DNA of 63,378 nt, counting the filler, from Stramenopiles sp. TOSAG23-3 (taxonomy: Eukaryota): NCBI GenBank assembly GCA_900128585.1. It is 10 parts of 10 records of this genome, joined end to end, with 100 filler letters (N's around TTAATTAATTAA, not from the genome) between each part and the next. Parts side by side here need not be neighbours in the genome. Positions count along the whole stretch, not along the records: positions 9,504 to 18,895 come from LT642923.1; 9 more parts are not named here. The stretch is one strand, 5' to 3'. The position numbers and the translations under genes are program-made. The stretch's first letter is position 1, and each line of letters begins with the position of its first letter. This document shows positions 10,578-13,070 of the stretch, piece after piece. Under the pieces are notes generated by a model, which was not told the DNA's origin, searched no databases, and was given only the letters and a program-made list of their open reading frames with translations.

Positions 10578-13070
10578 TTAAAAACAACTGTCGACAGATG
10601 TTGTGCCATGAGCTCTCTGCGTCTGCAAGCGCTTCGAGCGCCGCAGCTCCTGCGACTGTGACTGCTGGTGGCCCGGCTTCTTGATGGGAACGGGGTAGAC
10701 AATAACTGGTTGTTGCAATATGGGTTGTGCCTCGAGGATTCGGCGGTCGTAATTCTTGTAAAAAATGACCGTGAAGCGATTGCCTCCTTGGTAGTTGACG
10801 ACCTCGTGCGGCAGACGGCCGTCGAACTTCACAAGACGGTTGCGTATGTCAATATCCCTAGGCCCGCTCTTGGTGTGGACCCGCAGCAAGCCTCCCTTGT
10901 AGTTGCCGAGGCCCATGGCATACTGATATGTGATGTCCTCTACGTCCCCATGCTGCTTGACGTAGTGCTTCTTAGGGTCGGTCATTAATGCAAATTGCAC
11001 CACAAAATCGCCGTTGCACGCGTACTCAGGGTCAATGCACAACAACAGGAGACGCGCCACATGATACAGCTCGACAAACTGTTTGGTTGTGCCCTTGGCG
11101 TAGTCGCCGTTTATGAACACCTTCTTCCCAGGCTTGAAGTTGTGGGGCAAGGTGAATGTGTGCCACGTACCCACAGTTCGACCCATGGCTTTCTGCCACT
11201 TGAGTGAGAATTTTCTTTTGTTTTGGTCCCGGTTCTGTGTGCTAACTCTAACTTTCTCGAGGAGCGACAACAGCTTGGCTTGGAGCATTGGCACCTTGGC
11301 CATCATCACCTCCTTCAACACGCCTGTAGTCTCACTTTTCTTGGCAGTCATGGTGGGCAGTTTTCTCTTTTTAGATGTTTTTTTTCTCAAAATATCCTTC
11401 CCCCCTTCCTCCTCCCAGGGCTTCAATGAAATTGCACTGCACTTTGGCTTTCCAGAAGATTTGAATGCCTTCTTCCAGTACACAGTTACACACTTTTTCT
11501 CTCCTCCCCATAGCTTTGAATAATTTTTCTTTAACCTAACAAAGCGGCGGTGGTACATCAGCAGCGTTTCGGCATGAAAATTTTGTGTTTGCAGTGTCCT
11601 GTATTTACTGCAGCCGCCTGGGGCATTGGTTTTTTGCATGAAGACAAAGTGATACGAAACGACGTTTGAAATCCCATTTTTGATCAGTGTGAGAGAGCTG
11701 TGTAGATCTTCATGTTCCAAACAACATCTGAAGTCGATCTGGTGCTCCAAAAGAACGTCTCGGTGGTAGAAGTGCACCCCGCCAGCCCTTTCGTTTAAAC
11801 ATAGCCCTGGCTCTTTGTAGTGGTGCGATGTATGGCTTCCAATAGACCCATGTTTGTACGTGCCTAAGAGGTCCCTCACGTGATCAAAGAACGACATGGA
11901 ATTCTTCATTTTTTCCAACCGCCGTGCTTCTAATTTTCTGTACAAAACCAAGTCATCGTCTAAGACTAAGTGGAGATTTCCTTGAAAGTTATTCAAAACG
12001 TGCTGCCGTATTTCTTCCACCCTCCAGTTGTCGTCGACGCAGTGTAGAAAAAACACCCACTCCGGATGCTTCGTTTCCCACGAGACTTTTTCACTCTCTG
12101 GAATCACTATGTGTAAATCGACGGACATATACCATAATGAAGAGCAATCTAAAGACTGTATTGTTTTCTGACAATCAACCCTTCCTGAGGTCAGAATAAA
12201 TACTTGCAAGGTGTTGGTCCGATTAGTGACAGGTAGCACAGTGGTGGTAGGGGGTTTGATGCTCCTTGCCTTTACAAGGCGTTGTTGGGCAGTGACTAAC
12301 GCAGAAGTCTTCTCTTGAGCATCCTTAAGCGCCTTAGTAGTTCTATCGAGTTGAGCCTGCAAATTAGCCACCCGACTCGCATGGACTGCTGCGAGTGCAG
12401 CCTTCTCCTCGGCGTCGCGAGTACGAAAAGTATCTAGCTCATCTCTTACTTTGGCTAAGGAAGCGTCACGAGATTCTACCATTTTATTTAATCGCCCAAT
12501 TTCTGCCAACGAGATTCTACGAGACCAACGAGATTCTACCATTTTATTTAATCGCCCAATTTCTGCCAACCGCGCCGTTAATTTTTGGGACAAATCGTCT
12601 CCTCGTTGTTTGCTGTGGTCCAAACGATCTTGAAGGTCGTTAAGTTGCAGCTGGTACGCCTTCTTTCTTTTTTCCTCTTGTTGTTCTTCGGTGAGATTTT
12701 CGGCAGAGCTAGAAGTTTTCAACTGTGCGAGACCTGCTTGTAGCTCTTCTTCTAACTCGTCCAACCTAACTTGATCCTTCGTTTTCTTCGTTTTATACGT
12801 TTTCGGTTGAGGTAATTTCTCGTTCCAGACATCGTTAAAGTCTTTTCCATACCGTTCTAAAAACACGTCTTTGAATTCGTTGTATTTCTCTGGAGCCCGT
12901 CGTTTAATATTATATATCCAAGTCCATAAAGCATTCTCATCTTTCTGTTCGCCCGTTTTGGACGGCTTCCGTTCATGCTTCCCATAGAAATCCAGAACAC
13001 GCTTTACATTTTCGTTAAAGGGAACTCTGTTCCGCTTATGTTTTTTCTTGTCCGTTGCGAGAGAAGACAT
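10578..13070 (-). CDS. Fusion protein: helicase-associated (HA)-like DNA-binding domain + coiled coil + TET-associated (TAGT/GREB1/JGT-like) GT-A glycosyltransferase + TET/JBP-like 2OG-Fe(II) dioxygenase
   Basis: HA-like domain: FNENVKRVLDFYGKHERKPS...ENALWTWI. Glycosyltransferase (about 12205-11455): FILTSGR, IRQHVL, LVLDDDL, EHEDL, NAPGGCSKYRT, VYWKKAF. Dioxygenase (about 11070-10750): HGD, GNYKGGLL, FDGRLPH, RFTVIFY. Confidence 0.8.
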   Translation of the reverse strand: MSSLATDKKKHKRNRVPFNENVKRVLDFYGKHERKPSKTGEQKDENALWTWIYNIKRRAPEKYNEFKDVFLERYGKDFNDVWNEKLPQPKTYKTKKTKDQVRLDELEEELQAGLAQLKTSSSAENLTEEQQEEKRKKAYQLQLNDLQDRLDHSKQRGDDLSQKLTARLAEIGRLNKMVESRWSRRISLAEIGRLNKMVESRDASLAKVRDELDTFRTRDAEEKAALAAVHASRVANLQAQLDRTTKALKDAQEKTSALVTAQQRLVKARSIKPPTTTVLPVTNRTNTLQVFILTSGRVDCQKTIQSLDCSSLWYMSVDLHIVIPESEKVSWETKHPEWVFFLHCVDDNWRVEEIRQHVLNNFQGNLHLVLDDDLVLYRKLEARRLEKMKNSMSFFDHVRDLLGTYKHGSIGSHTSHHYKEPGLCLNERAGGVHFYHRDVLLEHQIDFRCCLEHEDLHSSLTLIKNGISNVVSYHFVFMQKTNAPGGCSKYRTLQTQNFHAETLLMYHRRFVRLKKNYSKLWGGEKKCVTVYWKKAFKSSGKPKCSAISLKPWEEEGGKDILRKKTSKKRKLPTMTAKKSETTGVLKEVMMAKVPMLQAKLLSLLEKVRVSTQNRDQNKRKFSLKWQKAMGRTVGTWHTFTLPHNFKPGKKVFINGDYAKGTTKQFVELYHVARLLLLCIDPEYACNGDFVVQFALMTDPKKHYVKQHGDVEDITYQYAMGLGNYKGGLLRVHTKSGPRDIDIRNRLVKFDGRLPHEVVNYQGGNRFTVIFYKNYDRRILEAQPILQQPVIVYPVPIKKPGHQQSQSQELRRSKRLQTQRAHGTTSVDSCF
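12468..12570. repeat. In-frame 43-bp direct duplication (60-bp period) inside the fusion gene
   Basis: acgagattctaccattttatttaatcgcccaatttctgccaac occurs at 12468 and 12528, giving LAEIGRLNKMVESR twice in the protein. Confidence 0.95.

Follow-up and report, generated by a model that had tools for sequence, protein, structure and literature searches.

A TAGT glycosyltransferase and an unnamed 2OG/Fe(II) dioxygenase share one open reading frame in a stramenopile and may form a DNA hypermodification enzyme

Phages make glycosylated hydroxymethyl-pyrimidines, and among eukaryotes such a base is known as the base J of kinetoplastids and their relatives; in these systems the oxidase and the sugar transferase are separate proteins. 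Separate genes for TET/JBP oxygenases and TET-associated glycosyltransferases (TAGTs), a family that was reportedly defined by Iyer et al. 2013 (NAR 41:7635), are already known in phages, and kinetoplastids use separate JBP and JGT enzymes. Here, we describe a gene of Stramenopiles sp. TOSAG23-3 (assembly GCA_900128585.1) that joins a TAGT domain to a 2-oxoglutarate (2OG)/Fe(II) dioxygenase domain in one predicted polypeptide. The stretch of DNA that was analysed, hereafter the window, comprises 63,378 nt, filler included. The open reading frame (ORF) occupies positions 10578-13070 (-), encodes 830 aa plus a stop, opens with an ATG and has AT-rich intergenic DNA upstream. Its 2490 nt hold no internal stop and all domains share a single frame, as an initial annotation of this DNA had claimed in describing an intact 830-aa ORF; we estimate the chance of 830 stop-free codons at 47 % GC at about 1e-18.

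On balance, we lean towards a model where one nuclear-targeted polypeptide performs two successive steps in DNA, the hydroxylation of a 5-methylpyrimidine and then its glycosylation. The C-terminal dioxygenase would hydroxylate the methyl group of the base, and the TAGT domain, a GT-A enzyme, would move a sugar from a nucleoside diphosphate sugar to the hydroxymethyl group so formed. This would yield a glycosyl-5-hydroxymethylpyrimidine comparable with base J or with the glucosyl-5-hydroxymethylcytosine (glucosyl-5hmC) of phages, and we infer that the protein is targeted to the nucleus and to chromatin. DNA is most likely the substrate, and hydroxylation before glycosylation most likely the order. 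The base would be 5-methylcytosine (5mC) rather than thymine, a preference that follows from a near-invariant Asp in the HxDxxD motif of the oxygenase. The initial annotation had likewise placed both steps in one protein; both domains are indeed intact and in one frame, but the membership of the oxygenase in TET/JBP, on which that claim also leaned, is no more than plausible. The literature that was searched contains no report of a TAGT-oxygenase fusion, an earlier description being possible in the TAGT-defining paper or in supplements, which lay outside the search.

The glycosyltransferase domain (aa 286-545; positions 11436-12215 (-)) belongs to the TAGT family by every test that was run. 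Pfam PF20691 (TAGT) matches aa 289-486 over profile positions 2-205 of 205, with 35.8 bits against a curated gathering threshold of 27.5 (E 1e-8), and PHROG 842 (‘beta-glucosyl-HMC-alpha-glucosyltransferase’) matches aa 286-544 (E 7.2e-27); Pfam linked the domain to no other glycosyltransferase family, LH3-type ones included. Its motifs are SGR (aa 295-297), DDD (aa 371-373), EHEDL (aa 452-456), NAPGGCSKYRT (aa 482-492) and WKKAF (aa 532-536), and the catalytic-motif residues within them are R297, D371-D373, E454-D455, G485-G486 (in GGCSxYRT) and W532. When the target was aligned with 21 relatives (P0002, described below, and 20 TAGTs from IMG/VR), R297, D371-D373, D455, G485-G486 and W532 proved invariant in all 22 sequences. 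The accessible text of bioRxiv 10.1101/2023.12.21.572611 gives R...DDD...ED motifs of this kind for trypanosome JGT and for the GT-A enzymes that phages use on DNA. The AlphaFold (AF2) model of the domain adopts a GT-A fold (predicted local distance difference test (pLDDT) score 90.9), and its best Foldseek matches in the PDB are the GT-A enzymes WrtF, TarP, RmlT, K4CP and the glycosyltransferase domain of LH3, at TMq of about 0.5 (the LH3 chain at rank 15, TMq 0.51); TarP is also given as the top PDB match of phage DNA GT-A enzymes (bioRxiv 10.1101/2023.12.21.572611). The Pfam threshold, PHROG 842, the motifs and the fold thus bear out the TAGT/GT-A domain that the initial annotation had proposed.

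What is described of TAGT chemistry points to modified DNA. PHROG 842 is the family of the T2/T6 beta-glucosyl-HMC-alpha-glucosyltransferase (PMC13216743), and the acceptor in the TAGT reactions covered by the accessible parts of these sources is a hydroxymethyl-pyrimidine or its sugar (bioRxiv 10.1101/2023.12.21.572611; PMC13216743). Most likely, the activity predicted for the TAGT domain is sugar transfer to a hydroxymethyl-pyrimidine of DNA. Phage TAGT relatives occur beside thymidylate-synthase-type hydroxymethylases (PhiJL001 gp22; RSL1 ORF233/234/237) and directly after Tet_JBP-type genes (gp26/gp27 of Nonlabens phage P12024L; gp67/gp68 of Arthrobacter phage Lilmac1015). A further relative, P0002 (546 aa, from NCBI), is 69 % identical over the glycosyltransferase domain and has no oxygenase; its C-terminus is a 260-aa basic region without a Pfam match, which looks Tudor-like by eye only.

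The second domain (aa 596-795; positions 10686-11285 (-)) carries HGD (aa 707-709), DGRLPHEV (aa 750-757) and NRFTVIFYK (aa 764-772), from which the residues H707-x-D709-x-x-D712, Q716, D750-G-R752, H755 and R765-x5-Y771 stand out; the HGD is the HxD that had been placed at positions 10944-10952, and the other motifs quoted in the initial annotation were likewise all found at the places given. Across an alignment of 97 sequences, H707 and H755 are each conserved in 96, D709, R765 and Q716 in 95, and D750 and R752 in 94; D712, five residues after the first His (H+5), is D in 89/97 and N in 6/97, and Y771 (R+6) is aromatic in 96/97. The AlphaFold model (pLDDT 89.4, predicted template modelling score (pTM) 0.82) combines a double-stranded beta-helix with an N-terminal helical/beta extension. 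Judged by its residues and its modelled fold, this is a 2OG/Fe(II) dioxygenase whose catalytic site is intact.

This dioxygenase represents a large family. An exhaustive HMMER scan of 1.84 billion cluster representatives (50 % identity) with aa 570-830 returned 420 representatives at E ≤1e-3, 138 at ≤1e-10 and 18 at ≤1e-30, so that the family numbers at least 420 clusters, mostly from marine eukaryote meta-omic data. We call it unnamed because none of the 47 members retrieved by a profile word search has a precomputed Pfam domain over the region; that word-index search yielded these 47 same-family proteins only, and no bridging match to a named family. Matches in the ESM Atlas were confined to unnamed clusters with virus and Chlorophyta labels, at a recognition below the usual level that makes them a lead only. 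The whole protein found nothing meaningful in the PDB by phmmer, and the oxygenase had no tblastn match in 50,697 phage records. Peptide patterns derived from the alignment detected no relative in IMG/VR, and a degenerate DNA pattern for DGRLPHEV hit six IMG/VR loci, none of them related by tblastn. A scan of one metagenome gave two stand-alone oxygenase loci, with no second fusion and with neighbours lacking informative Pfam matches. One stand-alone member (250 aa, nt 2007-2759) lies on a 9.5-kb GC-rich metagenome contig (L087) of tightly packed, same-strand ORFs, one of which encodes 612 aa and shows a GAGKS motif of Walker-A type along with a weak match to DUF5871; this contig could be virus-like.

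Profile searches of the PDB point from this family towards Tet enzymes. A 49-sequence family profile, run against 177,635 distinct PDB sequences, retrieved Naegleria Tet only (E 7e-4), and the 97-sequence profile had NgTet1 as its only match at E ≤0.01 (E 1.1e-3, 21.6 bits), the next being 15 PHD2 sequences about 10 bits lower (E 1-1.6, ≤11.9 bits). In the alignment, HKDNLDI of NgTet1 falls on HxDxxDI and GWRIGLVYF on GxRFxVIFY, with D234 on D712 and F295 on Y771. According to the accessible text of PMC11040006 and PMC7854593, the residue five after the first His (NgTet1 D234, TET2 N1387, CMD1 D350) hydrogen-bonds N4 of 5mC, and the aromatic residue (NgTet1 F295, TET2 Y1902, CMD1 F416) stacks on the base. 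A D or N at H+5 also clashes with the N6-methyl group, and so blocks N6-methyladenine (6mA) in conventional Tets (PMC11040006). Of six phage TET-like proteins, five had D/N at H+5 in a rough regular-expression search, as did 1 of the 14 prolyl-hydroxylase-like (PF13640) controls that had the pattern, out of 18 tried. We read the oxygenase as a distinct family that falls, within its superfamily, in the P4H/TET region and has base-contact positions like those of Tet; from its sequence, membership in TET/JBP itself is plausible.

The company that the oxygenase keeps is that of DNA enzymes. The domain was present at E ≤1e-5 in 204 of 207 collected proteins, among which TAGT was also found only in the window protein and in its own fragment P0005. 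A search of 5.8 billion proteins for near-length matches to aa 280-830 returned three, none with both domains, and a search for longer TAGT proteins (957-2730 aa) yielded nothing, an absence that is weak evidence. Other members show other fusions. P0003 (473 aa) couples the oxygenase to a Dam-type N6-adenine methyltransferase (PF05869; TIGR01712 E 6.7e-14, 51.8 bits, below the cut-off) and P0152 (530 aa, metagenomic) to a C-terminal UDG-superfamily glycosylase for DNA-deoxyinosine (hypoxanthine) (TIGR04274, 113.5 bits, cut-off 80; PDB 2l3f, E 4.5e-15). P0004 and P0023 (675 and 681 aa) carry AAA_33/Ploopntkinase3-type kinases, the matches of P0023 being AAA_33 at 29.8 bits against a cut-off of 27 and Ploopntkinase3 at 22.4 bits, below its cut-off; P0049 has a WWE domain, and P0009 and P0011 have P-loop NTPases by weak matches only. 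Mycobacteriophage Cooper has a Ploopntkinase3 protein, gp3, after its Tet_JBP-like gp2, and PMC8256090, in its accessible part, names glycosyltransferases and P-loop kinases as what phage TETs usually have beside them. We therefore read the unnamed family as filling the same contextual slot as TET/JBP, alongside DNA enzymes, and it is mainly for this reason that DNA is favoured as the substrate. The variety of partners suggests that several hypermodification or erasure pathways are built on this oxygenase. Two side observations concern these proteins: P0003 begins with a Cys-rich, DUF5763-like segment, and P0152, an oxidase and a base-excision enzyme in one chain, is reminiscent of TET plus TDG.

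Records outside the genome assembly also join the end of the TAGT domain to the oxygenase. The EukProt model P0005 (326 aa) is 100 % identical to aa 505-830, and thus unites the last 41 TAGT residues, the linker and the oxygenase in one model. Parts of the stretch are present in 22 listed public runs from 13 studies, 15 of them recorded as RNA and mostly poly(A) metatranscriptomes of marine origin; poly(A) RNA libraries do contain sequence of the locus. Contigs of the RNA libraries X1, X3 and X5 match both domains at ≥99 % identity with no splice-type joint, and a 917-nt contig from X21, a run with no library type on record, bridges nt 11186-12102 from the TAGT end through the linker to the start of the oxygenase with one differing letter. 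Such contigs cannot prove a single transcript, and those of the RNA libraries leave nt 11300-11387 of the linker and the first 137 codons uncovered, which is an absence of cover only. One X21 contig lacks one copy of a 60-nt (20-aa) repeat, with its joint at 12467->12528. Upstream of nt 12657, contigs of X1 and X21 switch, still in frame, to another coiled-coil sequence that is absent elsewhere in the window, and so the first 137 residues of the protein may differ from strain to strain or among paralogues. An intron at nt 12657 was considered and rejected, since the divergent sequence continues the coiled coil in frame.

Several results weigh against the two-step reading, and most concern the kinship of the oxygenase. 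The window protein does not match Pfam Tet_JBP (PF12851; curated threshold 34.9 bits) even at E ≤10, and its only Pfam oxygenase match is a sub-cut-off one to 2OG-FeII_Oxy_3 (PF13640; E 0.014, 16.8 bits). Only 4 of 49 relatives match Tet_JBP, weakly (best E 0.027), and 8 of the 49 match PF13640 (best E 6.2e-6); the protein P0115 reaches E 0.0057 against Tet_JBP. By hhalign, the 97-sequence profile scored 34.7 against six phage Tet_JBP-like proteins, a set drawn from mycobacteriophage Cooper and its relatives (P 3.7e-4), and 38.8 against 18 cyanophage PF13640 (P4H-like) controls, eight random six-sequence subsets of which gave 21.4-41.9; the phage Tet set itself scored 45.1 against the same controls. 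As the scores are no better for phage TET than for PF13640, the profile-profile comparison does not place the family in TET/JBP, and hhalign against single sequences gave uninformative probabilities of ≤3 %. Foldseek retrieved generic double-stranded beta-helix proteins from the PDB, with 6n1f, PHD2, P4H, T7H and NgTet1 all at TMq ≤0.41; in favour of Tet stands the best TMq in the viral structure library (BFVD), 0.45, to a phage ‘JBP1/TET oxygenase’ protein. Of the TET/JBP assignment made in the initial annotation, the Tet-like base-contact positions and the NgTet1 match remain, but neither the Pfam threshold nor the profile-profile comparison upholds it. An accepted phage member, Cooper gp2, scores only 26.6 bits on Tet_JBP, and P12024L gp26 (PF12851) also weakly matches PF13640, so that weak PF13640 matches are no evidence against a Tet relationship.

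Further points against the two-step reading come from genomic context and transcript cover. Tet_JBP was found in 0 of 45 IMG/VR records that carry the closest TAGTs, in a search where no control genome matched either, and the oxygenase-family hidden Markov model had no match among 2830 ORFs of 46 viral TAGT loci; a regular-expression shortlist over TAGT-bearing IMG/VR contigs likewise held no Tet-like protein. No DNA methyltransferase was seen in the 63-kb window, and the gap in RNA-library cover of the linker must be counted here as well.

Two enzymes that are fused usually catalyse consecutive steps, and this general knowledge tells against the alternative that otherwise survives best, in which both domains act on nucleic acids with no sequential 5-methylpyrimidine pathway. 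The oxygenase might, for instance, oxidize 6mA or alkylated bases, as AlkB-like or CcTet-like enzymes do, and the glycosyltransferase might use another acceptor. The Dam-type N6-adenine methyltransferase of P0003 would suit such a scheme, the base-excision glycosylase of P0152 would fit erasure or repair, and a fungal Tet is described as acting on both 5mC and 6mA (PMC11040006). Against this, the D/N at H+5 that blocks 6mA (PMC11040006) is kept in 95 of the 97 relatives, and the acceptor in known TAGT chemistry, so far as the sources cited above cover it, is a hydroxymethyl-pyrimidine or its sugar. We regard this alternative as unlikely.

Hydroxylation of a protein followed by glycosylation is known from collagen LH3, from Mimivirus L230 and from the Skp1 hydroxyproline pathway. 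A protein hydroxylase-glycosyltransferase of that kind, acting on Pro or Lys, possibly of a chromatin protein, and then glycosylating the new hydroxyl, would share the GT-A-then-2OG-oxygenase layout of LH3, which counts against a DNA enzyme, as does the presence of LH3 among the glycosyltransferase fold matches. Prolyl hydroxylases (PHD2, Pseudomonas P4H and Dictyostelium PHD) head the fold matches of the oxygenase, no Pfam model is matched weakly by more family members than PF13640, whose hhalign score is as good as that of the phage TET-like set, and GREB1, a TAGT-family protein, is reported to O-GlcNAcylate a protein, ER-alpha, through its TAGT-related domain (PMC7968844, in its accessible part). 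However, the glycosyltransferase is recognized by the TAGT model above its threshold and by PHROG 842 (E 7e-27), with no LH3-type Pfam match, and no LH3 lysyl-hydroxylase chain is among the 49 listed oxygenase fold matches. The PDB profile search favours NgTet1 over PHD2, by the 10 bits or so mentioned above, and the family is fused to a Dam-like methyltransferase, a hypoxanthine-DNA glycosylase and nucleotide kinases. A protein substrate is thus a shade less likely still than the non-sequential scheme.

An RNA substrate, with a methylated RNA base hydroxylated and then glycosylated, is very improbable. Some eukaryotic TET/JBP and N6-adenine methyltransferase clades have moved to RNA, according to the accessible text of PMC4738411, and no DNA-binding domain was detected by Pfam in the window protein; even so, the fusion partners of the family are of DNA glycosylase and DNA methyltransferase types, and the characterized TAGT relatives covered by the two sources on TAGT chemistry act on DNA (bioRxiv 10.1101/2023.12.21.572611; PMC13216743). 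Least credible of all is that adjacent genes or exons were read through, or the assembly chimeric, and that the cell makes separate proteins: the RNA-library contigs do not span nt 11300-11387, P0005 begins at an internal Met (aa 505) and the close relative P0002 has no oxygenase, but the single stop-free frame, the make-up of P0005, the bridging contig from an independent run and the lack of a splice-like joint in the linker all speak for one protein.

The segments that flank the two domains bear on how a two-step DNA enzyme would reach its substrate. The N-terminal region (aa 1-100; positions 12771-13070 (-)) is basic (26 % K+R) and contains KKKHKRNR (aa 8-15), and the linker (aa 546-595; positions 11286-11435 (-)) is Lys/Arg-rich (26 % K+R) with KKTSKKRK (aa 563-570); these are the basic patches, similar to nuclear localization signals, that had been noted previously. 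The C-terminal tail (aa 796-830; positions 10581-10685 (-)) carries, as also noted, RRSKRL (aa 810-815; nt 10626-10643), which we take to resemble the nucleosome-binding core of HMGN proteins (RRSARLSA-like), a motif that binds the nucleosome acidic patch. The pattern RRSxRL occurs in 2 of 206 proteins, the window protein and P0013 (shuffle mean 0.096, P 0.0035), the copy in P0013 being RRSERL in the N-terminal region, a non-homologous place. Between the basic N-terminus and the TAGT domain lies a helical, coiled-coil-like spacer (aa 101-285; positions 12216-12770 (-)) with a 20-aa tandem duplication, in which AEIGRLNKMVESR stands at aa 169-181 and again at aa 189-201. The helicase-associated (HA)-like domain that the initial annotation had suggested at about aa 20-80 could not be recovered: neither the whole protein nor aa 1-285 has a Pfam HA match at E ≤10, and aa 1-285 has no other Pfam domain at that level beyond weak coiled-coil-type noise.

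The surroundings are those of a cellular eukaryotic genome. The window contains long, mostly uninterrupted ORFs on both strands that encode typical eukaryotic cellular proteins, including kelch-kinase, MORN, septin, DHHC, WD40, CH-like domain, TRAF zinc finger and ABC half-transporter proteins, and the contig looks nuclear, eukaryotic and non-kinetoplastid, in agreement with the proposed non-kinetoplastid protist source. The target gene (GC 0.467; third-position GC (GC3) 0.542) lies within the range of its neighbours, with no signs of foreign origin in its composition, and tblastn found no second copy within the 63-kb window.

Some other features of the window deserve mention. At 4344-7196 (+), a 950-aa ORF fuses a class-I S-adenosylmethionine methyltransferase (Methyltransf_11, aa 389-479) to a UDP-N-acetylglucosamine (UDP-GlcNAc) 2-epimerase (aa 596-942, E 1e-83). 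Between it and the target are 3.4 kb that hold two genes and the filler at 9404-9503, and the adjacency may mean nothing; a nucleotide-sugar epimerase is described as sometimes present in phage TET/glycosyltransferase clusters (PMC8256090). Two ORFs of 1856 and 2295 aa, at 22525-28095 (-) and 28440-35327 (-), are nearly domain-free, a C2 domain being the only recognizable one in the first. Pairs of 44-N runs with 12 bases between them occur at 9404-9503, 18896-18995, 28388-28487, 37874-37973, 47345-47444, 56796-56895, 58442-58541, 60088-60187 and 61734-61833, spaced by about 9450-9490 bases five times and then by 1646 bases three times, and a single 15-N run lies at 21784-21798. These runs, none of which touches the target ORF, look like masking or scaffolding and not biology.

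The window protein can be set beside several characterized systems. The T2/T6 beta-glucosyl-HMC-alpha-glucosyltransferase is a characterized DNA glycosyltransferase of the same model families, PHROG 842 and PF20691 (PMC13216743), but it adds a second glucose to glucosyl-5hmC made before replication and has no fused oxygenase. LH3/PLOD3 and Mimivirus L230 do hold a GT-A domain and a 2OG oxygenase in one chain, perform hydroxylation and then glycosylation, and have a similar glycosyltransferase fold; they differ in their protein substrate, in the absence of a sequence-family match and in an oxygenase of another family. NgTet1 (PDB 4lt5, 5cg8) is the only near-significant PDB match of the oxygenase family, and the alignment takes in its HxDxxD, its distal His, its Arg and its stacking aromatic, yet the match (E about 1e-3) extends over 77 residues and leaves the N-terminal half of the domain unaligned. 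CMD1, TET2 and NgTet1 share with the family the D/N that contacts N4 of 5mC (PMC11040006, PMC7854593), whereas His297 of NgTet1, which contacts N3, is unconserved (N in 25, L in 19, S in 13, T in 11 and H in 7 of 97 sequences).

The dinoflagellate thymidine hydroxylases CryTJ1 and AmpTJ1, compared here by description only, are highly divergent marine-protist DNA oxygenases with HxD and H...R residues that only iterative searches brought up, and the accessible text describes no glycosyltransferase fusion for them (PMC11572971). In vitro, CryTJ1 made 5-hydroxymethyluracil (5hmU) on naked DNA and not on mono-nucleosomes (PMC11572971). If the RRSxRL tail of the window protein binds nucleosomes, it would show how such an enzyme reaches chromatin, where CryTJ1 met its limit.

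If the two-step reading is correct, DNA hypermodification would extend to a new eukaryotic lineage, a free-living marine protist. The protein would also offer a compact, directly testable enzyme for writing sugar-bearing bases. Beyond this protein, our work brings to light a large unannotated oxygenase family that is repeatedly fused to methyltransferase, DNA glycosylase and kinase domains, and that may represent a new branch of DNA base oxidation among marine eukaryotes and the viruses that infect them. More tentatively, the unnamed family might form a major, so far unrecognized clade of DNA-base oxidases in eukaryotes and viruses, placed within TET/JBP or as its sister, and this protist might use a single chromatin-tethered enzyme to write a glycosylated 5hmC or base-J-like mark into nucleosomal nuclear DNA; a hypermodified epigenetic base would then exist outside Euglenozoa, made by one polypeptide.

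The pairs of TET/JBP (5mYOX) and TAGT genes in phages (P12024L gp26/gp27; Lilmac1015 gp67/gp68) have a glycosyltransferase that shares both its Pfam family and its R...DDD...ED motifs with the window protein, and the 5mYOX-glycosyltransferase clusters of metaviromes are of the same kind (Burke et al. 2021; bioRxiv 10.1101/2023.12.21.572611). In the phage systems, as far as the accessible sources describe them, an Fe/2OG oxygenase supplies the hydroxymethyl acceptor, with P-loop kinases as alternative partners. Those pairs are separate genes of viral operons, whereas here one polypeptide of a cellular eukaryote would do both steps, with an oxygenase from another, unnamed family that fails the Tet_JBP model. 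The base J pathway of kinetoplastids (JBP1/JBP2 and JGT) is also eukaryotic and nuclear, and also hydroxylates and then glucosylates a DNA pyrimidine, and JGT is described as a GT-A enzyme related to the phage TAGT-type glycosyltransferases (bioRxiv 10.1101/2023.12.21.572611). It differs in relying on separate proteins and on thymine, where the Asp at H+5 of the window protein, read through the partial sources on Tet base contacts, would point rather to 5mC, and the strand-switching of genes in the window does not look kinetoplastid. The window protein would bring the glycosyltransferase of the phage pairs and the step order of the base J pathway together in a single chain.

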